Positions 9,667 through 64,000 of a stretch of 64,000 nucleotides of DNA are shown piece after piece. Source of the DNA: Thermoplasmata archaeon (GTDB lineage: Archaea; Thermoplasmatota; E2; JACPAO01; JAHFTW01); assembly GCA_023269235.1 (NCBI GenBank), contig JAHFTW010000001.1, positions 43,548-107,547 of the forward strand, read 5' to 3'. Made by a program: the position numbers and the translations under genes. The notes below the pieces were generated by a model. It saw only the letters and a list, made by a program, of their open reading frames with translations, did not search any database and had not been told where the DNA came from. Position 1 is the stretch's first letter. Every line of letters begins with the position of its first letter.

Positions 9667-9670
<4 letters not shown>
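9326..9670 (-). CDS. HPt (histidine phosphotransfer) domain protein
   Basis: YHTLKGNAAQFGL contains the HxxKG phosphoacceptor motif. Start ATG overlaps the HK stop (ATGA). Confidence 0.7.
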
Positions 9671-13695
<4,025 letters not shown>

Positions 13696-31028: not shown

Positions 31029-33496
31029 CGCGTGCGGCGCATGGCGACGGCGAGGGCCGCGAGGGCCAGGACGCCGAGGGCCAGCTCGAAGCCGGGGGTT
31101 CCCTTGCCCTGCGAGGAGCTCGCGGCGTGGCTGGCGGCCGCGGCGGCCGGCTCGTTGGGGGTCTGCTGAATGATGCCCTTGTCGTTGATGACGACGGGCG
31201 GGGCTTCGAGCACGTTGCCCCAGTACAGCATGTTGCGCAGAATCTGGTTGCCCGAGTACGTGGTGGCGTAGTGGTCCAGGCCGTAGGGGTGGTAGAACTC
31301 CTCCGTCGGGTCGGGCAACAGCGAGCCGATGAACTGGATCTGGCCCTTGCCGAGCGGGATCTTGCCGAGGCCGACGCCGTTGCCGGCGCAGCGGTCGCTG
31401 ATGCTCGTCGAGCCGCAGGCGATGCCCCAGACGTCGCCGCCGACCTTGCTCAGGGCGTCCGTCTTGACGAACCAGTTGGGGACCGCGTTGGCGCCCGTCT
31501 CGAAGCCGAGCGGGGTAGGCTCGACCGTCTGCTTGACGCCGCCGCGCACGTTGCGGTTGGCCTCGCTCGAGGCGTCCTGGTACTCGTAGAACACGGGCTT
31601 GGAGAGGTCCATCGCCTCGCCGCCCATGTACTGCAGGACGTTGTCCACGGCGCCGGAAGTGACGCCGGCGAGGTCGAGGAACTTGAGCGCCGAGTCGGTG
31701 AGGACGAGGTTGCCGCCGTCTTGGACCCAGCCCTTGATGGCCTCGACCGTCGCGGGGCTGCCGGCGATCTGCTCGATGGCGGAGCCGGGAATGACGAAGG
31801 AGTCGAAGCCGTTCAGCTTGGCGCGGGTGATCTCCTGGGTGGTCGCCTTGACGAGCACGCCCGGCTGGTTGCCGTTGCGCACGTAGGGCTTCAGGTCCTC
31901 CCAGTACTTGGCGGGGCGAGCAACGAAGCCGCCGTTCTTCCCGTAGTCCCACAGGTCGTCGCCGGGGTTCTTGTCGGCCCAGCCGCCGGGGGTCTTCAGG
32001 TTCCCTTTCTCGTCGATGTCGTCCTTGTTCGTGGCGACGAAGGTGGGCTCCAGGTAGAGGGTGCGCTTGCCGTGCGTCTCGAAGCTGATCTTGACGTCGA
32101 GGGCCGCGGCGTCCATGAAGGACTTGACGATCTCGCGCACGATCTTGACGTGGAAGTCGTTGAAGACCTGGCCGGGGCCGTACTGCGAGTCGGTCGTGAT
32201 GTGGTTGTAGGCCAACTCGATGTCGTAGCCAGGCGCGTTGAGGCCGGAGTCCTGGGCGAAGTAGTCGCCGTTGAAGCCGGAGTCAGTGTAGCCGATGGCG
32301 TCGATGACGGTGTAGTACTCGGCGAACTGGCTGGAGCCGGCGTTGGCGAGGGCGCCCTGCGTGAAGCACTCGTTGGCGGCGGTGCAGGCCGTGTTCTCGA
32401 CGTTCTCACCATTCTGGAACAGGTTTTGCCACCCGTCGAAGTGCGGGTCGTCGTTGAGGCGCTGCTTGAGGGTCTCGGCGAGGCGGACGCTGCGCTGCAT
32501 CTCCTGCGGCGTCATGGACGCGGCGGGCATCATGATGGCGCCGAAGTTCTGGTGGTTCAGCATGCCGTGGATGTCGATCGCGTAGCTCCAGGTGATGTTC
32601 TGCGTGAGCATCCAGTTGTAGTAGCCGATGGATTCCGGCTCGCCGACGGGGTCGCGCTGGGGGTTCTGCCAGCCGAGGGTGGGGGCCTGGCGGTTCAAGT
32701 CGACGTTGTGGCCGTTGGTGCGGCAGAAGCCGGGGCCGGCGCCGCAGTAGGGGTCCAGGATGAAGGGAACCTCGTCATGGGCCCATCCGTCCGCGTTGGG
32801 GAACAGGAGGAAGATGCGCATGAAGTCCAGGTAGTCGCGGTACGTGGAGACGTCGCCGCCGGTGGGCTTGGCAAGGGGCGTTGGCATGCCGGCGCCGTTC
32901 TGGACGGTCTCGGCCGCGAAGCCGATTCCCTTCAGGAGATCCTCGAGGACGCGGAAGCCGCCTTCGCGGCCGCCCTTCTCGTTGCCGTGGATGGAGAGCA
33001 TGAACAGCATCGACTGGCGGTTCTCCATTGGGATGGGGGAGTCCTTGTTGGTGATCTCCAGCATGTAGATGGGGAAGCGGACGCGGGCGCTGTCGGCGCA
33101 GCCGGGGCCCGTGGGGCAGCCGCCGACGGAGTCGGAGACATGGTGGACGGTGAGGTACTTCTTGCCCATCTCCGAGTTGGCGAGGTAGTCGAGCGCGGCC
33201 TGGAACTCGAAGTAGGAAACGTAATCGGTGGCTGGCAGGGAGCTGGCGCCCGCGAGCGCGTAGGGGGACCCGGCGGTCGAGAGGGGGCTGGCCTCGGGGA
33301 AGACGCGGCCGGTTGCGGACTCGCACACGCTGGGCATGATGACTGGGGGGACCATCGAGGGGGCGGGGCTGACCGAGCCAAGACAGTAGGGGACCGCCGG
33401 ATTGGCCGCCGCGGGGGTGGGAACAAGCGTGAACACGAAGAGCGCGGCCGCGAGCAGGGCGGGGCCGTTGCGCAGGAGGCGGGAGCCTTCCGACAT
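31025..33496 (-). CDS. Secreted M14-family zinc carboxypeptidase-like protein with PGF-CTERM archaeosortase sorting signal
   Basis: Signal peptide. SIHGNEKGG (M14 HxxE zinc site). C-terminus ...GTPGFELALGVLALAALAVAMRRTR* is PGF plus TM plus a basic tail. Confidence 0.7.
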   Translation of the reverse strand: MSEGSRLLRNGPALLAAALFVFTLVPTPAAANPAVPYCLGSVSPAPSMVPPVIMPSVCESATGRVFPEASPLSTAGSPYALAGASSLPATDYVSYFEFQAALDYLANSEMGKKYLTVHHVSDSVGGCPTGPGCADSARVRFPIYMLEITNKDSPIPMENRQSMLFMLSIHGNEKGGREGGFRVLEDLLKGIGFAAETVQNGAGMPTPLAKPTGGDVSTYRDYLDFMRIFLLFPNADGWAHDEVPFILDPYCGAGPGFCRTNGHNVDLNRQAPTLGWQNPQRDPVGEPESIGYYNWMLTQNITWSYAIDIHGMLNHQNFGAIMMPAASMTPQEMQRSVRLAETLKQRLNDDPHFDGWQNLFQNGENVENTACTAANECFTQGALANAGSSQFAEYYTVIDAIGYTDSGFNGDYFAQDSGLNAPGYDIELAYNHITTDSQYGPGQVFNDFHVKIVREIVKSFMDAAALDVKISFETHGKRTLYLEPTFVATNKDDIDEKGNLKTPGGWADKNPGDDLWDYGKNGGFVARPAKYWEDLKPYVRNGNQPGVLVKATTQEITRAKLNGFDSFVIPGSAIEQIAGSPATVEAIKGWVQDGGNLVLTDSALKFLDLAGVTSGAVDNVLQYMGGEAMDLSKPVFYEYQDASSEANRNVRGGVKQTVEPTPLGFETGANAVPNWFVKTDALSKVGGDVWGIACGSTSISDRCAGNGVGLGKIPLGKGQIQFIGSLLPDPTEEFYHPYGLDHYATTYSGNQILRNMLYWGNVLEAPPVVINDKGIIQQTPNEPAAAAASHAASSSQGKGTPGFELALGVLALAALAVAMRRTR

Positions 33497-33896: not shown

Positions 33897-34393
<497 letters not shown>

Positions 34394-34397
<4 letters not shown>

Positions 34398-48202: not shown

Positions 48203-50422
48203 CTACAGGAACTCCATCCCGCCGGCGTTGCCGGTGGCGGCCTTCTTGACGGCGGTCTGGCCAAGCTGCTCGGCGAGGCGGTCGTAGTACTTGATGACCT
48301 CCTCGGTCACCGAGCTGCGAACACTGCGGAGCGCCTCCTCGAAGTGGTTCTTGTTGACGATGCGGGCCTTGCGGTCCTCGCGCAGCGCCATGATGGCGGA
48401 CTCGCGACAGAGGCTCTCCAGGTCGGCGCCGACGTAGCCCTTCGTGAGCTTGGCGAGCTCGGCGAGGTCCACGTCCTTGCCGAGCGGCATGCCGGCCGTG
48501 TGGACCTTGAGGATCTGCAGGCGGGCGCCCTCGTCGGGGGCGCTGACCTTGATGACGCGGTCGAAACGGCCGGCACGCAGCAGGCCGGGGTCGATGATGT
48601 CGGGACGGTTGGTGGCGCCGATGATGACGACGCCCTCCATGCCCTCGAGGCCGTCCATGAGCGTCAGGAGCTGGTTGACGATGCTCTCCGTGACGTGGCT
48701 GCCCTCGTAGGCGCCGCGGCGCGGGGCGATGGAGTCGATCTCGTCGAGGAAGACGATGCTCGGGCTTGCCTGTTTCGCCTTCTTGAAGATCTCGCGAATG
48801 GCCTTCTCGGACTCGCCGACCCACTTCGACAGGACCTCGGGGCCCTTGACGCTGAGGAAGTTGGCGCCGGACTGGTTCGCGACCGCCTTGGCAAGAAGGG
48901 TCTTGCCGGTGCCGGGGGGACCGTAGAGCAGGATGCCGCGCGGCGGCTTGATGCCCATGCGGGTGAACGACTCGGGGTCCTCGAGGGGCCACTCGACGGC
49001 CTCCTTGAGCTGCTGCTTGACCTCGGCGAGGCCGCCGACGGTCTCCCAGGTGACGTTGGGGACCTCGACGAGGAACTCGCGCAGGGCCGAGGGGTCCACG
49101 ATCTTGAGGGCGCCCTTGAAGTCGTCCGCGTTGACGTTCATGCGCTCCAGCAGTTCGGCGGGGACCGGCTGGTCAAGGTCAATCTCAGGGAGGAAGCGCC
49201 GGAGCGATTTCATGGCGGCCTCGCGGGCGAGGGCCATCAGGTCGGCGCCGACGAAGCCGTGCGTCTGGTCCGCGAGCGACTCCAGGCTCACGTCCTCCGC
49301 CTTCGGCATGTTGCGCGTCTGGATCATGAGGATCTCGAGGCGGCCCTCCTTGTCGGGGACGCCGATCTCGACCTCGCGGTCGAAGCGGCCAGGGCGGCGG
49401 AGTGCTGGGTCAATGGAGTCAGGGCGGTTGGTGGCGCCGATGACGATGATCTTGCCGCGGCCCTTGAGGCCGTCCATGAGGGTGAGCATCTGGCTCACGA
49501 CGCGGCGCTCGACCTCGCCCTGGACCTCGTCGCGCTTCGGGGCGATAGCGTCCATCTCGTCGATGAAGACGATGCTGGGGGCGTTCTTCTCGGCCTCCTC
49601 GAAGGTCTTGCGCAGGTTCTCCTCGGACTGGCCGTAGAACTTGCTCATGATCTCGGGGCCGTTGATGGTGTAGAACTGCGCGCCGGCCTCGTTGGCGACC
49701 GCCTTGGCGATCATGGTCTTGCCCGTGCCGGGCGGGCCGTGCAGCAGGACGCCCTTGGGCGGGTCGATGCCGAGGCGCTCGAAGAGCTCGGGGTGCTTGA
49801 GGGGCAGCTCGATCATCTCGCGGACGTTCGTGAGGGCCTCGCGCAGGCCGCCGATGTCCTCGTAGCTGATCTGCGAGACGGCGGCGCCGGCGCTGGTGGC
49901 GGCCTCCTCGCTGACCTTGATCTGGGTCTCCTCGTTGATGAGCACGATGCCCTTGGGGTTCGTGCTGATGATGCTGAACGGGAGGGCGTTGCCGAACAGC
50001 GCGATGTTGGGGACGACGACGATGTCGCCCTGGACGCAGGGGCGCTTGAGCAGGCCGCGCTTGGCAAGAGCGTCGATGCCGTCGCCGAACTGAATCTGCT
50101 GGTCCTGGCTGATGGCGGGCGCCAGGGTGACCTGCTTGGCCGGCTTGACATCGGCCTTCTTGATGGCGACCTTGTCGCCGATGCTGACGCCGGCGTTCTT
50201 GCGCGTCAGGTTGTCCACATGGATGATGCCCTTGCCCTCGTCGCCGGGGTGCGAGCGCCAGACGACGGCGGCGGTCGTCTTGTGGCCCTTGATCTCGATG
50301 ATGTCGCCGGGGCTGAGGTTCAGTTCGACGCGGGTCTGGCCGTCGAGGCGGGCACGGCCGTAGGACACGTCCTGCTGGAGGGCCTCGACGACGCGGAGGG
50401 TGGCTTCGGTCTTGGTGGCCAT
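48203..50422 (-). CDS. cdc48: Cdc48/VCP/p97-type AAA+ ATPase (N domain plus two AAA domains)
   Basis: Two Walker A boxes (GPPGTGKT twice), SRH regions, the N-terminal double-psi barrel region and a C-terminal tail. Confidence 0.95.
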
Positions 50423-50586
50423 GGGATGTCAGCCCGGCATCTGTCAGGACTTCTACAAAAGGTGAACGGTGCCGGCTAGCGCCGTCCCCTTCTGCGGTCC
50501 TGGGGCGTCTCCGCCCGTGCCAGACTTGCCATCCGTCCCCGGTTCTTATAGGAGCGGAAACGCGCCGTCCCCGCAGCCGCCCGGCC

Positions 50587-52488
50587 TCAGTTTAGGAAGA
50601 GGGCGAAGCAGATGTAGCTCAGCGCCACCATGACGAAGGCGTGGCGGAGGCCAAGGATGGCCTTGCCCGACCCCATCTGCCCCGCTACGATGCCGTCGCC
50701 CAGCCCCTGCAGGACGGCGGCGAGCAGGTAGAACAGCTGGTAGTCCTGGAGGCTCAGCGTCTGGCCCTTGAGCGCCCCGAACGAGGCCAGCTGGGTCTGG
50801 TTCGCGGCGGCCTGGCTCGCGGCGACAAGCTGTGGCACGAACTGCGCGTACATGATCGAGGCCACGCCGAGGAACACGAGGAAGGTCACGTAGATGACGA
50901 CGGTGTAGAGGCTCATTGAGAGGCGGCGCTCGGTCTCGAGCGTCTTGATCTCGCGCGCGTCGCGGGCGGCCGCGATGAGCACCTCGGTCGTGGAGCCGCC
51001 GGAGCGGTCCGCCTGCAAGATGAGCGTCACCGCGCGCTGGACGAGCGGCGTGCGCACCCGCTCCGCGAAGCGCTGCAGGACCTCCTGGAAGCCGACGTTC
51101 CAGGTCACCTGGTCCGCCATGCGCCGCACCTCGGGCGTGAGCGGCCCGTAGTCGCCGCGCGCCGCCACCGCGATGGCGCTCGCGAGCGTGAGGCCGCCTT
51201 TGTGGCTCGAGGCGATGTCGCGCAGGAAATCCGGGAAGCGCTCCTCAAGCTGCCGGATGCGCTTCTGCTCGCGCGCCGCGTAGAAGCCGTACGGCCCCAG
51301 GGCGACCAGCAGGCCGAGGCAGAAGAAGTGGATCCAGGCGTTGGGTGGCATCCCGAGGAGGCTGTTGCCCGAGAACAGGATGAACGCGGGGACCATCAGA
51401 AGCACCGCGCCGACGGCCGAGCCGCCGAGGAGGAACGCTTCGCGCAGCTTCTTCGCGTCCGTCTTGACCTGGAAGAGCGGCGGCTCCAGCGGCTCCGAGC
51501 GGGCAAGGCGGAAGGCGGCGGCCAGGCTCAGGCCCATCGCCAGGAGAAGGAACCCGAAGACGCCCAGGATGACTGGGTCCTTCGCGACGTCGGCGAAGAC
51601 GCCCACCACCCCAAGGCCGAGGAGGATGAAGAGCAAGAACACCAGCATCAGCAGCGCGAAGGCCGCCAGGATGGGCAGGAAGATGGCGCGGTTTCGGTTG
51701 ATGGCCGGGCCGCCCGCCATGCCGCGGTCGCTGCCGAGGATGGCGCCGATGCTGGGCAGGCTGCGGCTGCGGATGAGCGCAAAGGAGGCCGCCGCACCCG
51801 CGCCGAGGGCGAGGAGCGGGACGTCGGCGTCCTGCGCCCCGCCGCGAAGGCTGAGCCACCCGACGAGGAGCGCGAGGACCGCCACCAGGCTGAGCCCGAG
51901 GAACGTGAGCAACGTGCGCGCCTCGCTGCCCGGGCGCGGAGGGCCTTGGAGCGTGGTCCAGTGCGCGTAGCCGCCGACGCCGAGCAGGATCGCGAGCATC
52001 GCGAGCGCGCCCTTGCCAAGGATCTCGTACGCGAACGGCAGGTGCAGGACCCCGTACCGGGCCGGGAGCGCGAAGCCAAGGACGACGACGGAGAGGATGA
52101 GGAGGACATGCAGCATCAGCGTGGAGATGCGCAACCGCTGGGCGACCTCGAGCTGCCGTGTCCGTTCGCCGGCGTCTTTCGCGCCGTAACGGCGCAACCG
52201 GTCGACGGGGTGTCCCAGGACGGAGCCGACCGCCACCAGGAGGAGACCGGCCGCGAGCAGCAGGCCCATCACCTGGGGCCAGGCGCCTCCGACGGGGACG
52301 GTGAGGCCCGCCGCGCCGACGATGGAGAGGGCGGTGCCGAGGGCTCCGCAAATGAGGGTGGCCAGCTCCAGGCCGGGGTGGGGCTGGGTGGGAGCGGTGG
52401 GAGGGGACACCTCGAGGTCGGGACGGCTCTCAAAGGCTGGCAGGCGCAGGAGCTTCCCGGCGGGGCCGTCGTCGCGTGGGTCCGCCAT
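50587..52488 (-). CDS. TadC/FlaJ-like polytopic membrane protein (T2SS-F domain) of a type IV pilus-like system, with extended N-terminal membrane region
   Basis: T2SSF-like segment FPDFLRDIASSHKGGLTLASAIAVAA. Multiple TM helices. Adjacent to the TadB-like protein and the ATPase. Confidence 0.7.
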   Translation of the reverse strand: MADPRDDGPAGKLLRLPAFESRPDLEVSPPTAPTQPHPGLELATLICGALGTALSIVGAAGLTVPVGGAWPQVMGLLLAAGLLLVAVGSVLGHPVDRLRRYGAKDAGERTRQLEVAQRLRISTLMLHVLLILSVVVLGFALPARYGVLHLPFAYEILGKGALAMLAILLGVGGYAHWTTLQGPPRPGSEARTLLTFLGLSLVAVLALLVGWLSLRGGAQDADVPLLALGAGAAASFALIRSRSLPSIGAILGSDRGMAGGPAINRNRAIFLPILAAFALLMLVFLLFILLGLGVVGVFADVAKDPVILGVFGFLLLAMGLSLAAAFRLARSEPLEPPLFQVKTDAKKLREAFLLGGSAVGAVLLMVPAFILFSGNSLLGMPPNAWIHFFCLGLLVALGPYGFYAAREQKRIRQLEERFPDFLRDIASSHKGGLTLASAIAVAARGDYGPLTPEVRRMADQVTWNVGFQEVLQRFAERVRTPLVQRAVTLILQADRSGGSTTEVLIAAARDAREIKTLETERRLSMSLYTVVIYVTFLVFLGVASIMYAQFVPQLVAASQAAANQTQLASFGALKGQTLSLQDYQLFYLLAAVLQGLGDGIVAGQMGSGKAILGLRHAFVMVALSYICFALFLN

Positions 52489-52489
52489 G

Positions 52490-53374
52490 CTAGGCCTCCG
52501 GGGTCATGACCTTGATCGTCCACGCGAAGCCCGCCTGGGCCATCGGGATGAGGACGAAAATCAGGAGGTAGCCGATGAGCAGGTTGTCGCCCCCGGAGCC
52601 GCCAAACGTGGTCATGACGGAGAGGATGACGATGAGGAAGAGCGGCGCGGCGACGACGACGGTGACGAACGCCTCGGCGAGCACGCCCAGCCCTTCGAGG
52701 AACTTGCGCTGTTCCTGGCGGTTGTCAAGGAGGTATTGGTCGGCCTTGTCGGAGAAGTACGTCTTGAGGTCGCCGCCCGAGGTGAGCGCCGTCACGGCGC
52801 CCTGCAGGAAGTCCTGGAACTTCGTGCTGGGGCTGCGGTCAATGGCGCGCGCCAGGGCGCCCATGATGTCCTGGCCCAGGACCCGCAGGTCGCGCACGAT
52901 CCAGGCGCATTCTTGCGCGACCTCGCCATAGAGCGGCTGCGCGGCGAGGCCGGCGAAGAGCTGCTCCGGCGTCGCTCCCGCGGAGGCCATGGTCGAGATG
53001 TAGTTCAGCGCGTACGGCAGCTTGGCGTTGAGGCCCCGGCTGCGGTTGAGGGTGCGCAAGTCGGGAAGGATGATGGCGGAGAGGTACACCATGATGGCGA
53101 GCACCACCGGTGCTGGCACGAGGAAGATGAACAGGCCCGCCGGGATGCTCGCGAGGCCGGTGAGGCTGGCGAGGATTAGGACGAGGACGGGGATGAGAGC
53201 AAGCAGCCCCGCCAGAGCCGCCGTGAGGTAGGCCGAGGCGAGGTACACCTCGGGCCGCAGCAGGATGTGGGCGCGCTCGAGCGCGAGGCGCAGGTGGGCG
53301 TTCTGGCTCGCCGCGCGTGTGGCGAGCGGCCCGAACCAGCGGTACCCGAGGCGCTCGAGGCTGCGCAGCGCCAT
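52490..53374 (-). CDS. TadB-like membrane protein (T2SS-F domain)
   Basis: Soluble helical segment between TM hairpins (LPYALNYISTMASAGATPEQLF). Start chosen at MALRSLERLGY, 1 nt after the ATPase stop. The longer ORF (to 53449) would overlap the ATPase by 74 nt. Confidence 0.6.
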   Translation of the reverse strand: MALRSLERLGYRWFGPLATRAASQNAHLRLALERAHILLRPEVYLASAYLTAALAGLLALIPVLVLILASLTGLASIPAGLFIFLVPAPVVLAIMVYLSAIILPDLRTLNRSRGLNAKLPYALNYISTMASAGATPEQLFAGLAAQPLYGEVAQECAWIVRDLRVLGQDIMGALARAIDRSPSTKFQDFLQGAVTALTSGGDLKTYFSDKADQYLLDNRQEQRKFLEGLGVLAEAFVTVVVAAPLFLIVILSVMTTFGGSGGDNLLIGYLLIFVLIPMAQAGFAWTIKVMTPEA

Positions 53375-53375
53375 G

Positions 53376-55370
53376 TCATTCCCTCGCGATGCGGGCCATG
53401 AACCCCTTCGGGTCGCGGTAGTAGGAGGTGACGTTGCGCGCCACGTCACTGTAATGGCGCACGCCCTTGGCCATCATCCATTCGAGCGCCTTGGTGCGGT
53501 TGGCCCACTCGGCTTGCAGGGTCGCTTCGGAGAGGTTGCGCCGCTCCGCGATCTGCTCGAGGAGGTAGGAGCGCCCGAGGAACGCATGCTTCCCGGTCTT
53601 GACGTCCCACTCGAAGACGGTGTTCGTCAGGAGCTCCCGGGTGTCGGGGTCGAAGCCGACGATCTCGGTGACGTTGAGGATGCGGCGCGCCAGCTTGTCG
53701 TCCACGCGGACCTGGGCCTGGATGGCCATCAGGCTGAGCGTCTGGAGCATGATGCGCGGGATGTTGATGGGTGCGTTCTCGAGGCGGTACACGGCGCTCT
53801 GGACCGAGTCGGCGTGCATCGTCGAGTACACGGCGTGTCCGGTCGCCATCGCCTGGAACAAGGTGAGGGCCTCAGGGCCGCGCACCTCGCCCACGATAAG
53901 GTACTCCGGGCGCTGGCGCAGCGCCGCCTCCAGGAGCTTGTACATGTCGATGGTCCCGGCGGGCTTGCCGGACGCGGTCTCGGCGCCGAAGCCGCTGCGG
54001 GTGAGGCCGGCGATCCAGTTCTCGTGGCTCAAGTTGATCTCGCGCGTGTCCTCGATGCTGACGATCTTCTTCTCGGGCGGGATGAACTGGCTCACGGCGT
54101 TGAGCGTCGTGGTCTTCCCCGAGGCCGTGCCGCCCGCGAGGAGGAACGAGGCGCCCATCTCCATGACGAACCAGAAGTAGGCGGCCATCTGCGGGCTGAT
54201 GGTGCCGTACCGAATCAAGTCGGGGGGCGTCAGCGGGTCGGCGCGGAACTTGCGGATGGTGAAGCTGCTGCCGCGCGTCGTGACCTCGCGGCTCAAGGTG
54301 GCCTGCAGGCGCGAGCCGTCCGGCAGGGTCGCGTCGAGCAACGGGTCGGCAACGCTGATGTGCTTGCCGCTGCGCTGGGCCAGGCGGACGACGAAGGCGT
54401 CCAGGTCGGCGTCGGAAGGGAAGACGACGGTCGTCCGGAGCGACTCGTACTTGCGGTGGAACAGGTAGATCGGGATGGTCGGGCCGTCGCACGAGATGTC
54501 CTCGATCATGCCATCGCGCAGGAGGACGTCCACGGGACCGAAGCCGAGGAAGTCGCGCACGAGATGGTACTCGACGCGCTGCAGGCCGACGGGGTCGAGG
54601 CGGATGGCGTGGTCGAGGACCGCCTGGCGCGCCGCCGTGAGCAGCACGTCGGACCAGTCGGCGCCGCTGCGCTGCTGGATGGCCTTGCGGCCGTCCAGGG
54701 TCCGGATGAGCGTCTCGCGCAGGAACTCCAGGACCGCCGTCTCGTCATTGCCCAACGTCGGCTCGATGACCTGGTAGAGATAGCTGCGGTCCGTTTCGTT
54801 GAGGAGGATGCGCACCCAGGCGCGGTCGGGGACGACGGGGGTCAGCTCGACTTCGCGGTGGCCCGTCGGGACGGGCGGAATGGAGGTGACCGGTCCGCCC
54901 TTCGCAGGCGCCTTCGCGACCGGCATGGGGGGAAGCGGGCTGAGCAACGAGGCCGGTTTGGGCACCGGTCGGGGCGGCGGAACGGGAACGCCGGCCGACG
55001 GCGGAGGCGGGGGTTGAACGAGAGGGGATGGAGGACGGGATGACGCGGCGCGAGGCCGGACGCCGGTCGTCGCGGCCGCCGCGGGCAAGGTGCCGTGGGC
55101 AAGGGCGGTCGCGAGGTGCGTGTCCGTGAACTCGAGCAGCTCCTCGACAGGTGGCGTTGACTGGGGGGGCGGCGGAGGAATTGCGTTGAGTCCAGGCGCG
55201 CGCGGGGTCGGCCGGCGCTCGGCCATGCCGGTGGGGACCTGGGCGGGGGCGGACCGCGGCCCCGCAAAGGGCGTGGGCGACGCGCGCGCGGGGGGCGACG
55301 GCTTCGCTTTCTTGGCGGGCGCCTTGGACGATTTTGCCGCGGTCTTGGCCCGGGGTGGTGAGGGGGTCAT
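53376..55370 (-). CDS. FlaI/TadA/CpaF-family secretion ATPase with ~200-aa Pro/Ala-rich low-complexity N-terminal extension
   Basis: Walker A LAGGTASGKTT, Asp and His boxes (ATGHAVYSTMHAD). N-terminus rich in P/A/K (PPPPQSTPP, PPPPPSAGVPVPPPRPVPKP). Confidence 0.9.
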   Translation of the reverse strand: MTPSPPRAKTAAKSSKAPAKKAKPSPPARASPTPFAGPRSAPAQVPTGMAERRPTPRAPGLNAIPPPPPQSTPPVEELLEFTDTHLATALAHGTLPAAAATTGVRPRAASSRPPSPLVQPPPPPSAGVPVPPPRPVPKPASLLSPLPPMPVAKAPAKGGPVTSIPPVPTGHREVELTPVVPDRAWVRILLNETDRSYLYQVIEPTLGNDETAVLEFLRETLIRTLDGRKAIQQRSGADWSDVLLTAARQAVLDHAIRLDPVGLQRVEYHLVRDFLGFGPVDVLLRDGMIEDISCDGPTIPIYLFHRKYESLRTTVVFPSDADLDAFVVRLAQRSGKHISVADPLLDATLPDGSRLQATLSREVTTRGSSFTIRKFRADPLTPPDLIRYGTISPQMAAYFWFVMEMGASFLLAGGTASGKTTTLNAVSQFIPPEKKIVSIEDTREINLSHENWIAGLTRSGFGAETASGKPAGTIDMYKLLEAALRQRPEYLIVGEVRGPEALTLFQAMATGHAVYSTMHADSVQSAVYRLENAPINIPRIMLQTLSLMAIQAQVRVDDKLARRILNVTEIVGFDPDTRELLTNTVFEWDVKTGKHAFLGRSYLLEQIAERRNLSEATLQAEWANRTKALEWMMAKGVRHYSDVARNVTSYYRDPKGFMARIARE

Positions 55371-55453
55371 GGAGGTCCAGTCCTTCAGGGTGAGACGGTC
55401 GTGTGGCAGGGATTGTCTTGAGGCGCTTAACCGTTTCCGGAGGAGCCGGAGCC

Positions 55454-56497
55454 TCAGCTGAACGTGAAGAGGACCACGAGGTCCTGGAAGTCGGCCGCCG
55501 ACGAGTTGAGGTCGTCCGTGAACTCGTAGAGGAGGATGACCTGGTTCCGGTCGAGCACCATGGTCTGCGTGTAGGTGTTCACGTACGGCTGCATGAACGA
55601 GGCCAGGAGCGCCTGGTTGCCGAAGGCGGGCCGGTTGGGGGCGGCATCGCCTTGCTTCAGGGTCAAGACATGAGGCGTGGACGCGATCGAGGTGTAGGTC
55701 TTATCGAACGAGCAGCTGGCGAGCCTGGCCCGTCCTTCGACGCCGAGGACGGAGCCGGCGGGCACTTGGCCCAAGTTGAGGCTCTGGCCACCGTTCGGGT
55801 TCACGGGAGCGCCGCCAAAAAGGGAAGCGTAGCTGGACCCGCCGTTTTGGGTGTAGCGCGCCGTCACGTCCATTTGCGGCCCGGACGCGCCGCAGGTGAT
55901 CTGGGCACCCACGATGGCCAGGTTCACGTTCCAGGTGCCGCCGGACACCGTGATGCCGCCCGAACCGGCGCCGATGAGGAAGGCCGGCGACTGCGAACGC
56001 AAGGCCTCGACCTGGAAAACGTACTCGCGGTTGGAGTACACGGTCACCTGGGCCTCGCGCCCGGCAGCGGAGTAGCAGCCGGCAACGGGGCCGATGATGC
56101 AGAGCCGGGTCCCCACCGTCCAGGCGGGGCCGCCAATCTGGGCCGAGAAGGTGGAGAGGGGCACCGCGGTCTGGACGCCATCCAGCGTGATGAACAACGT
56201 CGAGCCCGCGACGGGGATGTCGTCCGGCCCGCTTGGCTCCAGGTAGTAGCCTTCGCCCGTGAAGGTGGCCTTTCCGCCGGACTCCACGGGGTCGTGCGGT
56301 TGCGTGCGCAGCACCTGCGTCATGACGACGAAAAGCGCCGCGAGGACCACGACGATGCCGATCAGCAGGATGCCGCCAATGGGCCCTGTGGCTGCGCCCC
56401 GGTCGGTGGCGAAGCGTCGGCGGGGGGCGCGGGGGGCAGCCTCCATGACCCTACTGTGCTGAGGGGGCTGCCTTTCGGGCTTTCGGGAAAGGTTCAT
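55454..56497 (-). CDS. Archaeal type IV pilin-like protein (class III signal peptide), 347 aa
   Basis: DRG|AATGPIGGILLIGIVVVLAALFVV fits the archaeal prepilin [KR][GA]-hydrophobic pattern and Pilin_N. An alternative ATG at 56446 gives a shorter leader. Confidence 0.65.
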   Translation of the reverse strand: MNLSRKPERQPPQHSRVMEAAPRAPRRRFATDRGAATGPIGGILLIGIVVVLAALFVVMTQVLRTQPHDPVESGGKATFTGEGYYLEPSGPDDIPVAGSTLFITLDGVQTAVPLSTFSAQIGGPAWTVGTRLCIIGPVAGCYSAAGREAQVTVYSNREYVFQVEALRSQSPAFLIGAGSGGITVSGGTWNVNLAIVGAQITCGASGPQMDVTARYTQNGGSSYASLFGGAPVNPNGGQSLNLGQVPAGSVLGVEGRARLASCSFDKTYTSIASTPHVLTLKQGDAAPNRPAFGNQALLASFMQPYVNTYTQTMVLDRNQVILLYEFTDDLNSSAADFQDLVVLFTFS

Positions 56498-56513
56498 CCG
56501 TCTCGCCTCGGGC

Positions 56514-58034
56514 CTATCCTGCCGGCTGCAAGGCGATGCCCACCGTGCCCTTGCGCAGGGTCACGAGGACATCCTTCGTGGCGTCGGTGGGGGACGAGCA
56601 GGGCCCGAAGAAGTTCAGGGTCGCCGAGCCCGGCGTGCTGCCCACGACCGGCGTGGTGCTGATCGTGTACTTCGCGGCGGAGGTCGTCGTGTCGAGGCAG
56701 GGAGCAAGCGACGGGGCGGCGGCGGACGAGAGGCCGGCGAGCTTCATCCGCTCGTCCCAGAACGCGGCCCACGCGGCCGGGTGGTTGGTCGTCAGCGTGA
56801 AGGTGATGTCCTGCGCGGTGGCCTGGAGGGCGGTGCCGGCGCCCGAGGGCGAGGCGACGATGGTGGCGGCGCGCGCGCCGGTCACGGCCGCGGAGCCGCC
56901 CGAGAGGGCCGGGAAGCTCCACGCGATGCCGGCCTGGCTCTGCGTGGTGCCCACGGAGAAGCTGGGCGGCGACACCATCGCGTCGCCGTCGGTCTGCGTC
57001 AGGAAGACGGCGCCGTACTCGAATCCGTACGTCTGCACGGGCAGGCGCTGGTTGTTGACGAGCACGCTCAGAACGCCGGTCGGGGTGAAGTCGTTGAAGC
57101 TGGTGTAGCTGAGGCCGAGGCCGCCCTTGCGCACCGTGCCGTAGGCGGTGCCTTGGTCGTACACGAAGGCGACCTGGCCGGCGGTGTTGCCCTGTGCGTA
57201 CTGCGCCTTGAGCGGGAACGCCGAGGCGGGGACCGCCGCCAGGACGGCGCCGAACTCCCCTTCCGTCAGGGGATCAAAATAGAAGTAGGCGGGCAAGAAG
57301 GCCGGCACGGTGGGCACGATGGCTTGGCTCCGCGTGCGGTAGGGAGTCGCCGAGCAGGTGGCGGCGGCCGGGTTCTGCGCGGCGTAAAGCTGCGCCTCGA
57401 TCATTTTGTTCGCGCCCGTCACGCCGCCCGTCACGCCGGCGAAGACGACCTTGACCTCGCCCTGGCAGTTGTTGCTGCCGTCGGTCAGCGTGAAGTCGAG
57501 CGTCTGGGTCCCGGAGGGGAGCGAATCCGGGTTGGGGACACGCATGCGCAAGTGCGCGACGCCGAGGATCCCGGTGACCTGCGAGCCGTCCCAGGTCCAG
57601 TCCTCGTTGAGGCTGTAGAGTGGGCTGCCCCCGGCCTGCTGCAGCGCGATGGGGCGGGCGGTGGTCATCGTGAGGCCTGCGTTGGACGAGGAAGGCGTGT
57701 AGGTGACCGACCCCGGCAGGAGCTGCGAGCCGAAGAAGCTGAAGCCCTGCGCCCGGGTCAGGCTGATGGACTCCGAGAGGGCGACGGTGGTCTGGTTGTT
57801 GGCGATGCGATCCAGGTCGGATTTGAGCTGGCCCACGACGCTGCCGGTCTCGATGCCGGTGTCGCGTTCGCGCTGCTTGTCCCAGATGGGGACGAACTTG
57901 ACCTGGATGACCGTGAGGGTCACGAGCAGCAGGCCGAACATCAAGATGGCCCCGAGGACGGTCGAGACGGCGTGGTCATCGCTGCGTGGGCGCGGCATGG
58001 GCCGGAAGCCTGGGAAGCGGGGGCGGGCCGTCAT
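56514..58034 (-). CDS. Large archaeal pilin-like/adhesin-like protein with Pilin_N-type N-terminus, 506 aa
   Basis: ...SDDHAVSTVLGAILMFGLLLVTLTVI is homologous to the N-terminal helix of the next gene. The rest is beta-rich and T/S/G-rich. Start overlaps the upstream stop (ATGA). Confidence 0.6.
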   Translation of the reverse strand: MTARPRFPGFRPMPRPRSDDHAVSTVLGAILMFGLLLVTLTVIQVKFVPIWDKQRERDTGIETGSVVGQLKSDLDRIANNQTTVALSESISLTRAQGFSFFGSQLLPGSVTYTPSSSNAGLTMTTARPIALQQAGGSPLYSLNEDWTWDGSQVTGILGVAHLRMRVPNPDSLPSGTQTLDFTLTDGSNNCQGEVKVVFAGVTGGVTGANKMIEAQLYAAQNPAAATCSATPYRTRSQAIVPTVPAFLPAYFYFDPLTEGEFGAVLAAVPASAFPLKAQYAQGNTAGQVAFVYDQGTAYGTVRKGGLGLSYTSFNDFTPTGVLSVLVNNQRLPVQTYGFEYGAVFLTQTDGDAMVSPPSFSVGTTQSQAGIAWSFPALSGGSAAVTGARAATIVASPSGAGTALQATAQDITFTLTTNHPAAWAAFWDERMKLAGLSSAAAPSLAPCLDTTTSAAKYTISTTPVVGSTPGSATLNFFGPCSSPTDATKDVLVTLRKGTVGIALQPAG

Positions 58035-60307
58035 GTAGTGCTGATCCTCGCGTAGTCGAGAAGGACGGTGGTGGTCACGGTGCTCGCCGGGTTGACGTCA
58101 CGGATGCGCACCTTGGGCGCCCCGTTGTTGTACTCTGTGGGCAGCAACGTGAGCTGGCAAGTGTAGGCGACGGCGGTGACGGAGACCGAGTTGAGCTGGC
58201 TGGGGCAGACCCGCCAGGCCCCCGTGCTGGGGTTGAACACGCCGACGATGAACACGTCGTTGGCGACAATCGGGGAGATGTGGTAGCCCAGGTCCAAGGT
58301 CTGCGCCCCGGTCGTCGGGCTGGAGTTCGGCACGTTGGCGAACGTGAGGACCTGGTTCATGCCGCGGCCCGCGCCGCCGGTCACGGCGTAGGAGACCTTG
58401 ACGAAGAGCTGGTCCACGTTGGCGTTGGCGCTTGGGCGGGCGGTGAGCGTGAAGTGAATGGCGAGAGCCTGGATGTCGGCCGTCGTCCACGAGCGGTCCG
58501 CGGTGACGTCCAGCGTCGTCACGTCGTCCACGGTGTTTGAGCTCAGGGTCGCCCCGGTCAGGGTCGTTGGACCGGTCGCGCCCCCCACGGCGTAGTCCAT
58601 CGTGATGGTCGGGGAGGTCCCGGTGCTGGACTTGCGGGCTTCGAAGCCGATGAGGACCTGCGTGATGCCGCCGGCGCCGGCAGGGGGCGTCGTCCAGATT
58701 CCGTCGACGTAGAGGTTGGCGTTGACGCTGCTCAGGGTGGCGAACTGGTCGTCGCTCAACAAGGCGCACGCCTGGTTCACGTACGTCGGGCAGCTCGTCT
58801 CGGAGACCGAGTTGCTTCCCGTGTTGGACGTGCCGGGCTGGATGGCGAAGGTGACGGGCACTTCCGTCATGCTCGCTTCCGTGCCGCCCGCCGCCGTGGC
58901 GCCCACCGCGTTGGTGATGGTTCCTGCCGTAGCCACGATGCCGCCCGTCGTGATGTAGGTGGGCGAGACGATGTCCACTAGGTCGGACTGGGCGGCGCTC
59001 GGCCCGGTGTTCCCGGCGGCGTCCTTGAGGTTGAGGAACTGGTACTGCAAGGTGCGTCCGGCCTGCAGGTACCACGTCTGGCTAGGAACGACCCCCGTCC
59101 ATTGGTGGTTGGCGGGAGCGCCGACGCGGCTCAAGGCGCCACCAGCGACATACGCGGGGTTGGTGCCGTCATTGAGACGGTAGGCCAGCGTCGGCGTCGC
59201 CGTCGTGTCGTCCACGCCCCAGCAGTTGTCCACGATCGTTCCCGTCACGGTGACGGTGCCGGCCGGCGTGGTGCTCACCAGGTTGGCCGGGCTCGCCGCT
59301 TGCCACGTGACACTCGGCGGCGTCGTGTCGCCGGTGCAGTCCGCGTCAATGACGTCGCTCTGCGTCGAACTGGTCCCGGCGTTGGCGCGCAGGTCCTTGT
59401 AGGACGCAATGTAGTACTCGAGGACCTTGCCGGACTGGGCGGACCAGGTCTGGCTCGGGACGGTGCCGGTCCAGACGGAGAGACCTTGGGTCGTCATCGC
59501 GCCGGCGTCCGCGTACGCCGGAGCCGAGAGGCCACGCAGGCGCCAGAAGAGGTGCGGCGGGAACGCGGTGTCCACGCCCGCGCAGTTGTCCAGCAGCGTG
59601 ACAGAGACCGTGATGGCGCCCGAGGAGAGGCTCGTGACATCGGAGGGGCTTTGCACCCACGGGCCGGCACTGGGCGCGGTCGTGTCGAAGGGGCAGGCCG
59701 CGCCCGAGGAGACTTGGCCGGGCACCAGCGTGGCGGTGGCGAGGAGCTGGCTGCCGGCGGAGCCGCCGGTCTGGCGGGAGACCACGTTGAGCAGCACGTT
59801 GTCGGTGGACTGCAGGGTGAGCGTAAGCGTCCACGTCTGCCCGATGGAGAGACGGCCGTTCGGGAAGCCGAGCGCGGTCCCCGTGATGCTCACCGGGGCG
59901 CCGATGTTGATCTTGTACAGGATGGTCGTCTGCGACGCCTCGATGGCCTCGCCGCCGACGTTGCGGACGATGAGCTGCTCGTCGCCGTTGCCCCAGGCGG
60001 CGTTGCCGGGGCTCACGGAGATGGCCAGGTTCGCCTGCGGGAAATCCACGGGGCCCTTGAACGAGAAGACCAGGGCGCCCATGACCGTCGCGAGCGTGAC
60101 GGTGATGGCCACCAGGAGGATGGAGCCGACGACGTCGGAGACCGCACCGCGGTCGCCCCGAAGATGAAGCCGGGAAGGCGAAGAACGGCGGGACATCATG
60201 GTCATGGGCAGGCTCCTGCCGACCGCCCCGTCCGTGGGCCCTCGAGGGTCTTGAACCCGTCGGCAGAAGGCAGAAGACCCCTTCGCGCGGCGGGCCGCAT
60301 GGTTCAC
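58031..60307 (-). CDS. Large archaeal pilin-like/adhesin-like protein with class III signal peptide, 758 aa
   Basis: RGDRG|AVSDVVGSILLVAITVTLATV prepilin-like N-terminus, followed by a long Thr/Ser/Gly-rich beta domain. Start overlaps the receiver stop. An alternative start at 60205 (MTMM) is possible. Confidence 0.6.
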   Translation of the reverse strand: MNHAARRAKGSSAFCRRVQDPRGPTDGAVGRSLPMTMMSRRSSPSRLHLRGDRGAVSDVVGSILLVAITVTLATVMGALVFSFKGPVDFPQANLAISVSPGNAAWGNGDEQLIVRNVGGEAIEASQTTILYKINIGAPVSITGTALGFPNGRLSIGQTWTLTLTLQSTDNVLLNVVSRQTGGSAGSQLLATATLVPGQVSSGAACPFDTTAPSAGPWVQSPSDVTSLSSGAITVSVTLLDNCAGVDTAFPPHLFWRLRGLSAPAYADAGAMTTQGLSVWTGTVPSQTWSAQSGKVLEYYIASYKDLRANAGTSSTQSDVIDADCTGDTTPPSVTWQAASPANLVSTTPAGTVTVTGTIVDNCWGVDDTTATPTLAYRLNDGTNPAYVAGGALSRVGAPANHQWTGVVPSQTWYLQAGRTLQYQFLNLKDAAGNTGPSAAQSDLVDIVSPTYITTGGIVATAGTITNAVGATAAGGTEASMTEVPVTFAIQPGTSNTGSNSVSETSCPTYVNQACALLSDDQFATLSSVNANLYVDGIWTTPPAGAGGITQVLIGFEARKSSTGTSPTITMDYAVGGATGPTTLTGATLSSNTVDDVTTLDVTADRSWTTADIQALAIHFTLTARPSANANVDQLFVKVSYAVTGGAGRGMNQVLTFANVPNSSPTTGAQTLDLGYHISPIVANDVFIVGVFNPSTGAWRVCPSQLNSVSVTAVAYTCQLTLLPTEYNNGAPKVRIRDVNPASTVTTTVLLDYARISTT

Positions 60308-60741
60308 CGGATGCGGCCGAAGCGGCCGGACTCGGTCTCCATCTCGTTGAGGATCTTGCGGACCGCCTCGGTGCGGGCGGGCTTGGGCAGGTAGGCGAAC
60401 GCGCCCTGGCGGATTCCCTTGACCACCATCGGGTCGGAGGCCGGGAGGCCGGTCACGAGGATGACGCGCGTGCTCGGGTTGCGGGCGAGGATCTTCGCCA
60501 TGACGTTGAGGCCAGAGTCGGCGGTGTCGTCGAGCACCATGTCAAGGAACACGGCGTCGATGGGCGCCTTGTCGAACTGCTTGAGGGCCTCCACCGCGTC
60601 GGCCGCCTCAAGGATCTGGGGCGGCGTGCGGGTGGCCTGCTTGATGGCCGAGGCGAGAGTGAGCCGGATCGTGGGGGAATCGTCCACGAGGAGATAACGG
60701 GCCACAAGGACACAAGGGGGGAGTGATACATGAAGCCGCAT
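60304..60741 (-). CDS. Stand-alone CheY-like response-regulator receiver domain
   Basis: LLVDDSPTIRL...DAVFLDMVL...ILVTG...K (phospho-acceptor D and conserved K). First gene of the pilus operon. Confidence 0.75.
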   Translation of the reverse strand: MRLHVSLPPCVLVARYLLVDDSPTIRLTLASAIKQATRTPPQILEAADAVEALKQFDKAPIDAVFLDMVLDDTADSGLNVMAKILARNPSTRVILVTGLPASDPMVVKGIRQGAFAYLPKPARTEAVRKILNEMETESGRFGRIR

Positions 60742-60829
60742 GGAACGGGGCGGAGGGCGAAGTCGCGGCGGGACAGGTCAACCGCGCGACCCCAAGACCT
60801 CAAATAAGGCGCGCCTAAACCTGGTCCCC

Positions 60830-61261
60830 ATGCAGGGGGCACAGGCGGCTCCGTCGGGGCCGCTGTTTCACTTCACCGACCGGCGCCGATTCTACTGGAA
60901 GCTGGCCCTGCTCGCGGTCACCACCGTCGCCCTCGTGCCCATCCTCCTCCTGAAAGACCAGGGGTGGGCCACGCTCTACCTCTGGAGCCTCGTCGCGGTC
61001 CACGTCGGCGGCGTCGTCATCGTGGTCCTCGGCGTCAAGCGCGCCCAGATCGCCCCGGACACGCGCGGCCTTGTCATCCGCCTCGTCGCCATCGCCCTCC
61101 TCGTGGCCCTTCTCTACCTGGCGAGCAAGGGGCTGCAGGACCCCACGCTCGGCCTGGTCTTCTGGGGGAGCCTTTTTGCCATCTGGGCCCTGCACACTGC
61201 GGGGCTTGCCCTGCTGCACATCCGGGGCCGCCGCGAAGCCTCCGTCTGCCCGTTCGTGTAG
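60830..61261 (+). CDS. Small membrane protein (4 TM), unknown
   Basis: ATG at 60830 is preceded by AT-rich cctcaaataagg (TATA-like). Four hydrophobic helices. Confidence 0.4.
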   Translation: MQGAQAAPSGPLFHFTDRRRFYWKLALLAVTTVALVPILLLKDQGWATLYLWSLVAVHVGGVVIVVLGVKRAQIAPDTRGLVIRLVAIALLVALLYLASKGLQDPTLGLVFWGSLFAIWALHTAGLALLHIRGRREASVCPFV

Positions 61262-61323
61262 GCGGCCCGCCGCGCCGACCCAAGGCGCCACCTTTTGATG
61301 CGAGGCGGGCGTCCTGCCCCTGA

Positions 61324-64000
<2,677 letters not shown>

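Follow-up and report, generated by a model that had tools for sequence, protein, structure and literature searches.

A probable adhesion pilus operon with modular pilins and a neighbouring receiver–kinase pair in a Thermoplasmata archaeon

We analysed a stretch of 64,000 nucleotides (hereafter the window) from an uncultured Thermoplasmata archaeon (GenBank assembly GCA_023269235.1, contig JAHFTW010000001.1), which carries a putative type IV pilus locus on its minus strand between positions 50587 and 60741. The window has a G+C content of ~70%, and a G+C content at third codon positions (GC3) of ~0.9 was used as the mark of true genes. At the locus we found seven consecutive open reading frames (ORFs), each with a coding-type GC3 of 0.89–0.94, all at the coordinates listed in a preliminary description of this DNA. 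They encode, in this order, a stand-alone receiver, three large pilin-like proteins (pilins 1 to 3), a secretion ATPase and two membrane proteins that resemble TadB and TadC. On balance we favour the view that this is a two-component-regulated, non-archaellar euryarchaeal adhesion pilus operon built from modular pilins, the major pilin of which is probably encoded elsewhere. For comparison, we collected related loci by looking up identical proteins and by scanning GTDB genomes with a pattern. This yielded 13 distinct loci besides the window copy; L002 and L008, which repeat the place of L001, and L006, which is the window itself, were left out of this count. The related contigs are Thermoplasmata/Thermoplasmatota metagenome-assembled genomes, two of them labelled uncultured Halobacteriales and one labelled 'bacterium'.

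The longest of the three pilin-like proteins, pilin 1 (58031–60205, minus strand; 724 aa), has a class III-type N-terminus (GDRGA/VSDVVGSILLVAITV) and matches Pilin_N with an E-value of 4.5e-13 and a score of 50 bits, which lies above the gathering score of 25. Its layout comprises a complete small pilin module, two immunoglobulin (Ig)-like repeats and C-terminal β-jelly-roll domains resembling carbohydrate-binding modules (CBMs). In an alignment of 14 family members the N-terminus D-[DE]-x-[AG]-V-[SA]-D-x-V-G-S-I-L is kept, and the C-terminal ~300 aa are conserved across the family. The Ig-like repeat is ~125 aa long, contains a conserved Cys pair, follows the pattern C..D..APTV..W.QSP.DV...G.VTV.A.L.DNCAGVD and is present in 0 to 5 copies, of which the window protein has two. 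This variation in copy number among orthologues suggests a fast-evolving length of an adhesin stalk. The AlphaFold model (mean predicted local distance difference test, pLDDT, 77; predicted template modelling score, pTM, 0.37) has a beads-on-a-string shape, with a helix at residues 23–47 and β domains at 58–160, 179–285, 298–411 and 416–724. When the model was compared to the PDB with Foldseek, only generic tandem Ig/FN3 arrays (including invasin and InvD) were found, with very low TM-scores. The N-terminal module by itself superposes on the Haloferax volcanii pilin. A sequence search of the PDB gave only weak N-terminal matches of pilin 1 to archaeal pilins (8GI2, E 0.003); pilins 2 and 3 had no match of note.

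Pilin-like protein 2 (56514–58034, minus strand; 506 aa) belongs to the DUF7289 family (E 6e-8), for which a full-text literature search yielded no paper. In the 21 sequences of its family the N-terminus D-[DE]-x-[AG]-V-S-x-V-L-G-A-I-L is kept, and those members that bear a name in their source records are called hypothetical proteins there. The model of this protein (pLDDT 84.8, pTM 0.72) shows a 58-residue N-terminal helix followed by β domains that are weakly lectin-like. Pilin-like protein 3 (55454–56497, minus strand; 347 aa) has a class III-like N-terminus (TDRG/AATGPIGGILLIGIVVV), and full-length orthologues are confined to the closest loci L001, L007 and L010. Its C-terminal domain of ~170 aa (55454–55980) recurs in 510 representative proteins (E<=1e-3), many of them 400–1500 aa long, in which it is often internal or repeated and co-occurs with Laminin_G_3, CARDB, MopE, TSP3 or DUF4215. 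No Pfam model matched this domain in the nine proteins scanned, so that it looks like an uncharacterised, widespread extracellular domain.

The preliminary description had assigned class III or Pilin_N N-termini to all three proteins, an assignment that holds for pilin 1 and for which pilins 2 and 3 stay below the Pilin_N threshold. All three nonetheless carry a class III signal peptide-type segment followed by a pilin-type N-terminus, as do substrates of such machines. The cleavage sites that had been placed in pilins 1 and 2 are likely to lie one residue further on, after A or G (D-[DE]-x-[AG]/V-S), because both families conserve D-[DE]-x-[AG] and then V-S, with a hydrophobic helix following.

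In these proteins an N-terminal pilin module is followed by independent non-pilin domains, the layout to which Raynaud et al. apply the term 'modular pilins' in bacteria (PMC8179133). Pilins 1 to 3 are modular pilins in this sense and most likely presented at a pilus tip. The earlier guess of adhesin-tipped pilins thus agrees with the predicted structures, in which a pilin module is joined to Ig-like spacers and CBM-like or lectin-like domains. The bacterial counterparts are Streptococcus sanguinis PilB (with a vWA domain) and PilC (with a ConA-like lectin domain), CofB of enterotoxigenic Escherichia coli (ETEC) and Vibrio cholerae TcpB; they are predicted or shown to be located at the tip and adhesive, with lectin-type modules that bind glycans as part of this predicted or shown role (PMC8179133, PMC9934059). 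They share with the window proteins a small pilin module onto which binding modules are grafted through linkers. In contrast to them, the modules found here are of the archaeal Pilin_N type instead of the bacterial IPR012902, the grafted parts are Ig-like repeats with CBM-like jelly rolls, DUF7289 and a domain unmatched in Pfam, all pilin genes at the locus are modular, and the binding function is a predicted one. The large size of the three proteins had been regarded as unusual; minor pilins of 250–550 aa have, however, already been described for euryarchaeal clade 2/system 2 pili (PMC4858521; bioRxiv 10.64898/2026.04.22.720090).

We searched the window for the parts of such a machine that are missing from the locus. 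The Pfam scans covered selected GC3-supported ORFs across the 64 kb. Within these, no Peptidase_A24 (prepilin peptidase) was detected, as had been stated before. Three heuristic scans of the window for further pilin-type N-termini, including those of small pilins, returned only the three known genes, in agreement with the statement that no small major pilin is encoded at the locus. Moreover, no small pilin was found within the ~10-kb flanks of the related loci.

The absence of a small pilin from these regions could mean that a self-contained 'bottle-brush' fibre is built by repetition of the large proteins, above all of pilin 1 with its complete pilin module, and needs no small major pilin. 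Each subunit of such a fibre would display Ig-like spacers and CBM-like heads. The flexible, beads-on-a-string pilin 1 model, with its low pTM and good local pLDDT, suggests a protein that could be packed in this way, and a position in the filament body with a flexible linker was left possible by Raynaud et al. (PMC8179133). However, bulky modular pilins modelled in the filament body clash sterically in the same study, and for clade 2 machines, those of haloarchaea included, the use of pilins from genes in trans is on record (PMC4858521). The search for small pilins spans the window and the flanks of related loci. In addition, we know of no type IV filament with a major subunit of 500–700 aa. 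We regard such a fibre as unlikely.

A second explanation for a locus without a major pilin is a bindosome-like or pseudopilus display, in which a short, cell-proximal structure would anchor the three glycan-binding proteins for the capture of polysaccharides, in place of adhesion through long pili. The predicted CBM-like and lectin-like folds of the accessory domains would suit this function, and proteins that combine a class III signal peptide with a binding domain have been proposed to functionalise archaeal type IV filament machines for scavenging (bioRxiv 10.64898/2026.04.22.720090). The models for the bindosome proteins BasE and BasF, on the other hand, gave only 195 bits (cut-off 1000) and 44 bits (cut-off 1300), and membership in the Sulfolobus-type bindosome (Bas) was therefore rejected. 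In the window no ABC transporter or solute-binding-protein fold is tied to the locus, and arrays of 0–5 Ig-like spacers are more typical of adhesins that reach outwards. We consider a display structure of this kind improbable, and prefer the adhesion pilus with its major pilin elsewhere.

The ATPase gene (53376–55370, minus strand) encodes a secretion ATPase of the archaeal PilB/GspE2 type (T2SSE, E 1.1e-38) with a Walker A motif (GGTASGKT) at residue 413, an Asp box at 440, a Walker B motif at 491 and a His box at 511. More than 7,800 homologues were found, and the closest source-named ones are mostly from Thermoplasmatota/Thermoplasmata, with a few from Halobacteriales or Euryarchaeota. The best NCBIfam match is the ArlI/FlaI equivalog NF058587, though with 412.5 bits it lies below the cut-off of 550, and the TadA model TIGR03819 reached 161.6 bits against a cut-off of 373. 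Among solved structures, the type II secretion-like, GspE-type ATPase of Archaeoglobus fulgidus (2OAP) scored 446 bits, compared to 277 for Sulfolobus acidocaldarius FlaI and 160 for CpaF. Since the FlaI equivalog stays below its cut-off and 2OAP is by far the best solved match, the sequence identifies the protein as a non-archaellar archaeal pilus ATPase. The earlier label of a FlaI/TadA-family ATPase is right at the level of the FlaI/PilB/VirB11 superfamily with its catalytic motifs, and fails for Tad membership and for the FlaI cut-off. The protein appears to fit euryarchaeal clade 2, the sister of the archaellum clade, an assignment made by proxy from the similarity to 2OAP, which we take to be a clade 2 member.

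The first 180 aa of the ATPase contain 27% Pro and 16% Ala, so that the Pro/Ala-rich N-terminal extension described previously exists, provided that translation starts at ATG 55370. One public gene call places the start 148 codons later, which would give a protein of 516 aa, and GC3 is 0.80 in the extension versus 0.95 in the core. Relatives of the ATPase are mostly 570–800 aa long, and N-terminal extensions are therefore common in the family. An extended N-terminus, which had also been counted among the unusual traits, is already known for ATPases of system 2 (bioRxiv 10.64898/2026.04.22.720090).

Downstream of the ATPase lie the genes for the platform. The TadB-like protein (52490–53374, minus strand) contains a T2SSF domain (E 3.5e-15) and matches positions 21–249 of the 555-position ArlJ model, while the TadC-like protein (50587–52488, minus strand; 633 aa) has its T2SSF domain at residues 421–547 (E 1.9e-15) and matches ArlJ positions 263–536. 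The identification of both as TadB- and TadC-like T2SSF membrane proteins was thereby confirmed, with one such domain in each. Because the two genes match complementary halves of the ArlJ/FlaJ model, the platform is split and not duplicated; the split is kept in L001, L003–L005, L010, L012–L014 and L020. For the TadB-like protein, a length of 319 aa had been given, but it is most likely 294 aa, starting at ATG 53374, 1 nt past the ATPase stop codon, and relatives are 292–295 aa long. In the TadC-like protein ~11 hydrophobic segments are predicted, and its polytopic N-terminal extension of ~340 aa (coordinates given as 50587–51600) accounts for ~9 transmembrane segments. This extension is kept in distant loci (604–623 aa proteins in L003–L005 and ORFs of similar size in L012–L014) and the closest relatives, L001 (413 aa) and L010 (ORF of ~334 aa), lack it.

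A two-gene platform is also found in the Tad pilus (TadB/TadC) and in the archaeal Epd pilus, or system 1 (EpdJ/EpdK), and the ATPase is distantly related to CpaF/TadA. These systems differ from the window locus, which lacks a tiny pilin of the Flp/EpdE type, a dedicated peptidase and a secretin, and whose ATPase is much closer to 2OAP than to CpaF. With the TadA model below its cut-off, we rejected Tad membership. The split platform is a trait of Tad loci that is present here, and no Flp-like small pilin was found in the window.

The first gene of the locus encodes a stand-alone receiver (REC) domain (60304–60741, minus strand; Pfam Response_reg, E 4.4e-18) of 145 aa when read as the longest ORF. 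Since its first 13 codons have a GC3 of 0.46 and look non-coding, the start is probably the GTG of codon 13 at 60705, which gives a protein of 133 aa. As read from the sequence, the set of phospho-acceptor residues is intact (D20/D21, D67, T97 and K120), and there is no output domain. The CheY_Halo model scored 37.6 bits against a cut-off of 200, and no che genes were found in the window. The term 'CheY-like' used for this protein previously is thus apt for its single-domain architecture and not for its identity: judged by its sequence, it is a generic stand-alone REC domain and not a CheY orthologue.

Divergently from the receiver gene, on the plus strand, a unit (60830–63999) encodes a small membrane protein with three transmembrane segments (60830–61261) and then a sensor histidine kinase that runs from 61324 to the end of the window. 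Pfam domains of the kinase are dCache (weak), HAMP, PAS_3, HisKA and HATPase_c. The 892 aa of the kinase encoded within the window yielded no complete receiver domain. Past HATPase_c (63600–63999) we found a degenerate receiver-like stretch (VVLLVEPDE) and then, at the window edge, the canonical start of a receiver (RILIVEDN). The protein is therefore probably a hybrid kinase with a pseudo-receiver, cut by the window edge. A divergent hybrid kinase one small membrane-protein gene away had been proposed before; the kinase and its place are correct, and the word 'hybrid' depends on this truncated receiver-like motif. A kinase gene likewise adjoins the receiver gene in L001, L004, L005, L009, L010, L012 and L016, and we consider the kinase at 61324 the probable partner of the receiver. 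With receiver genes in nine of the 13 distinct related loci, often together with a divergent kinase, the earlier proposal of a two-component link of the pilus locus is supported by synteny.

A receiver at the head of the operon, an ATPase whose best NCBIfam match is ArlI/FlaI, platform halves that match ArlJ models and relatives that are called 'FlaI' in some databases might together suggest an archaellum-type motility apparatus under CheY control. All these matches, however, fall under the equivalog cut-offs (412.5 versus 550 and 75.7 versus 550 bits), the ATPase matches 2OAP much better than FlaI, and the receiver is not a CheY orthologue. Moreover, no archaellin, FlaF (ArlF), FlaG (ArlG), KaiC/FlaH (ArlH), FlaCDE (ArlCDE), FlaX (ArlX) or CheF was detected among the scanned ORFs of the window. 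This is in line with the previous conclusion that the lack of FlaH, FlaG and FlaF points to a pilus and not to an archaellum. We rejected membership in the archaellum family and regard such an apparatus as extremely improbable.

Single-domain receivers that are genetically tied to a type IV filament machine are known from CheY–ArlCDE in archaea and from PilG/PilH and FrzZ/RomR–MglA/MglB in bacteria (PMC7534055, PMC3441718). The window locus resembles these systems in having such a receiver. It differs from them in that the receiver is not a CheY orthologue, in that a CheA/CheW/CheF context is missing, and in that a classical HisKA sensor kinase is present instead.

The junctions between the genes were then compared with the starts proposed for them. 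Pilin 1 had been described as a protein of 758 aa that is translationally coupled to the receiver gene by an ATGA overlap. The actual sequence at this junction is GTGA, and its GTG is the start of pilin 1 only in the mechanical sense of the longest ORF. The 34 codons upstream of ATG 60205 have a GC3 of 0.76 compared to 0.92 in the body of the gene, an AGGAG sequence lies 7 nt ahead of this ATG as a Shine–Dalgarno motif, and an independent public gene call on an identical contig likewise gives 724 aa. Because pilin 1 thus begins at ATG 60205, 98 nt past the receiver stop codon, we rejected translational coupling of the two genes. The true ATGA overlap is the one at 58031–58034, where the start of pilin 2 overlaps the stop of pilin 1. 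The other genes follow each other with gaps of 16 nt (pilin 2–pilin 3), 83 nt (pilin 3–ATPase), 1 nt (ATPase–TadB) and 1 nt (TadB–TadC).

We scanned the region 50300–61400 (~11 kb) for sites with at least 7 of 8 A/T and found four. Just two of them are intergenic: the TATA-like element TTATTTGA (60800–60807, minus strand), which lies between the divergent genes, ~60 nt ahead of the receiver ORF, and is a candidate operon promoter, and TATAAGAA in the spacer between TadC and CDC48. The other two, TTCTATTTTGAT and AACAAAATGAT (coding strand; 57273–57284 and 57400–57410), lie inside the coding sequence of pilin 2 and may be internal promoters or chance occurrences. As no such site was found in the receiver–pilin 1 and pilin 3–ATPase gaps, the placement of the AT-rich sites is compatible with one transcript from the receiver to TadC, and we infer that such a single transcription unit is plausible. 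A scan for promoters and terminators with bacterial models, which are uninformative for an archaeon, predicted 0 promoters and 7 terminator-like sites, versus 4.1±2.1 expected.

Orthologues of pilin 1 and pilin 2 were found at all 13 related loci. The full set of pilin 1, pilin 2, ATPase, TadB and TadC is present in eight of them, and the remaining five contigs end before the ATPase. Two gene orders can be distinguished. In the window-type order, a divergent kinase is followed by the receiver, pilin 1, pilin 2, pilin 3, the ATPase, TadB and TadC; it is found in L010, partly in L007 and in rearranged form in L001, and L010 contains a second receiver and kinase downstream. In the second type, the order is divergent kinase, receiver, Roadblock, GTPase fusion, KaiC-like ATPase, pilin 1, pilin 2, ATPase, TadB and TadC. 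This order is present in L004, L005, L009, L012, L014 and L016, and L003 has the same module with receivers downstream. In more distant loci of Methanosarcinales, the gene of a divergent ATPase adjoins one of KaiC-like type, and there are three or four DUF7289-like pilins, a layout that matches the report of Makarova et al. for Methanomicrobia (PMC4858521).

The additional module of the second type was located at 4071–6742 of L004, 2032–4695 of L005 and 4314–6588 of L003, and it is also present in L009, L012, L014 and L016. It encodes a Roadblock/LC7 protein, a fusion of ~400 aa that joins a weak KaiC-like N-domain to a Rab/Arf-like GTPase, and a KaiC-like ATPase of ~250 aa. At six of the seven loci the receiver heads the module, and L003 has an unannotated gene of 198 aa at this place. 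By sequence the GTPase is Rab/Arf-like, and MglA was not among its best 60 PDB matches. The KaiC-like ATPase was considered as a FlaH orthologue and rejected, with E-values of 2.6e-4 for FlaH structures versus 1e-12 to 1e-17 for KaiC. The module recalls the MglB/MglA-type control of bacterial pili, the likeness being a receiver gene followed by Roadblock and small-GTPase genes. In contrast to MglA/MglB systems and to these sister loci, the scanned ORFs of the window include no Roadblock, small GTPase or KaiC genes. Of this module, the type IV pilus literature that we searched names just Roadblock and KaiC as neighbours, and in a general way.

Most of the traits that appeared unusual at the locus are documented traits of euryarchaeal clade 2/system 2 pili, of which it seems to be a lineage-specific variant. 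A pair of tadC-like genes and a signature β-rich minor pilin of 250–550 aa occur in many clade 2 loci, their PilA major pilins are often encoded in trans, and KaiC ATPases and Roadblock proteins are frequent neighbours (PMC4858521). System 2 has been described by Sivabalasarma & Albers with extended ATPase N-termini, large adhesin-like proteins and single-gene platforms (bioRxiv 10.64898/2026.04.22.720090). Common to the window locus and these machines are a FlaI-like but non-archaellar ATPase whose N-terminus is extended, a platform of T2SSF type and large β-rich pilin-like proteins. Examples for comparison are the PilB/PilC loci of H. volcanii with their PilA pilins (8FJ5) and the A. fulgidus ATPase 2OAP. 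The window locus differs from them in its pilin set (the pilin 1 family, the DUF7289 family and pilin 3), which is lineage-specific, and in having a receiver gene, usually with a kinase, as a conserved neighbour. By word search, the terms response regulator, receiver and CheY do not occur in the texts of PMC4858521 and bioRxiv 10.64898/2026.04.22.720090. Three features have no description in the literature that we searched: the receiver and kinase that accompany the locus across the lineage, the particular modular pilin families and the Roadblock/GTPase/KaiC module of the sister loci.

Several observations weigh against a two-component-regulated adhesion pilus with modular pilins. Neither a prepilin peptidase nor a small major pilin was found within the 64 kb, and what is known of the pilus here comes from genes and predicted structures. 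The Pilin_N matches of pilin 2 (E 0.009) and pilin 3 (E 0.0013) are sub-threshold. Strictly applied, the FlaFind pattern does not appear to fit any of the three N-termini. The platforms of system 2 have been described as single genes (bioRxiv 10.64898/2026.04.22.720090), whereas here two genes encode complementary halves. Finally, the window receiver and the receivers of related loci share at best ~28% identity (BLAST, E 7e-4), so that orthology across loci cannot be claimed and the correspondence is one of position only.

In the reading that we favour, a hexameric ATPase of the PilB/GspE2 type would act on a platform built from the TadB-like and TadC-like half-gene products. A class III signal peptidase encoded elsewhere would cut the short leader, after which the ATPase would draw the pilin-type proteins from the membrane by the hydrophobic helix at the N-terminus of each. 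Most likely, the three modular pilins make up a priming or tip complex of low abundance, in which modules for binding to glycans or surfaces are exposed on Ig-like spacers. The shaft would consist of a small pilin of the PilA type, with its gene at another place in the genome. The receiver would be phosphorylated by the divergently encoded membrane sensor kinase. Because it has no output domain, it is expected to act by protein–protein contact, and it could contact the machine directly, for example at the N-terminal region of the ATPase or at the platform extension. In this way pilus assembly would be tied to an external signal.

We also weighed the possibility that the locus represents an undescribed subtype of Thermoplasmatota filaments, which would use only large lectin- or CBM-bearing modular pilins, have no shaft pilin and be switched post-translationally by the receiver, and in sister lineages through Roadblock, GTPase and KaiC proteins. 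We give this possibility little weight. If it were true, archaea would have their own equivalent of the spatial control that MglA/MglB-type proteins exert on bacterial pili, and the locus of the window would be a reduced form of it, with a receiver that addresses the ATPase or the platform without intermediates. If, on the other hand, the locus is one more pilus of system 2 whose major pilin is encoded elsewhere, the gain lies mainly in better annotation of DUF7289, of the pilin 1 family and of the extracellular domain in pilin 3 that Pfam leaves unmatched.

For uncultured soil and sediment Thermoplasmatota no surface appendage has been characterised so far. An operon with predicted CBM-like subunits beside a kinase–receiver pair offers a testable handle on how these archaea attach to polysaccharide-rich particles. 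The same operon is a handle on how stand-alone receivers of archaea find their targets, as most of them lack a known partner or a conserved neighbourhood. Furthermore, it extends the idea of the modular pilin, documented in bacteria until now, to the archaea.

Elsewhere in the window, a protein of 823 aa (31025–33496, minus strand) has a signal-peptide-like hydrophobic N-terminus and no Pfam match, and its gene lies two genes from that of a cyclophilin (33897–34397). In L003 a protein with Pilin_N and fn3 domains adjoins a cyclophilin upstream of the pilus locus. We considered the 823-aa protein as a relative of the pilins and rejected it, as it has no detectable similarity to the pilins of the related loci or to the Pilin_N–fn3 protein of L003.

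The window also encodes a hybrid kinase of 1342 aa (9667–13695, minus strand) with MASE1, several PAS, HisKA, HATPase_c and receiver domains. Together with the kinase at 61324, it indicates a lineage rich in two-component systems, unlike the cultivated Thermoplasmata. Classical Thermoplasmata have almost no such systems, with 3 kinases and 4 regulators in 11 genomes (PMC5847659).

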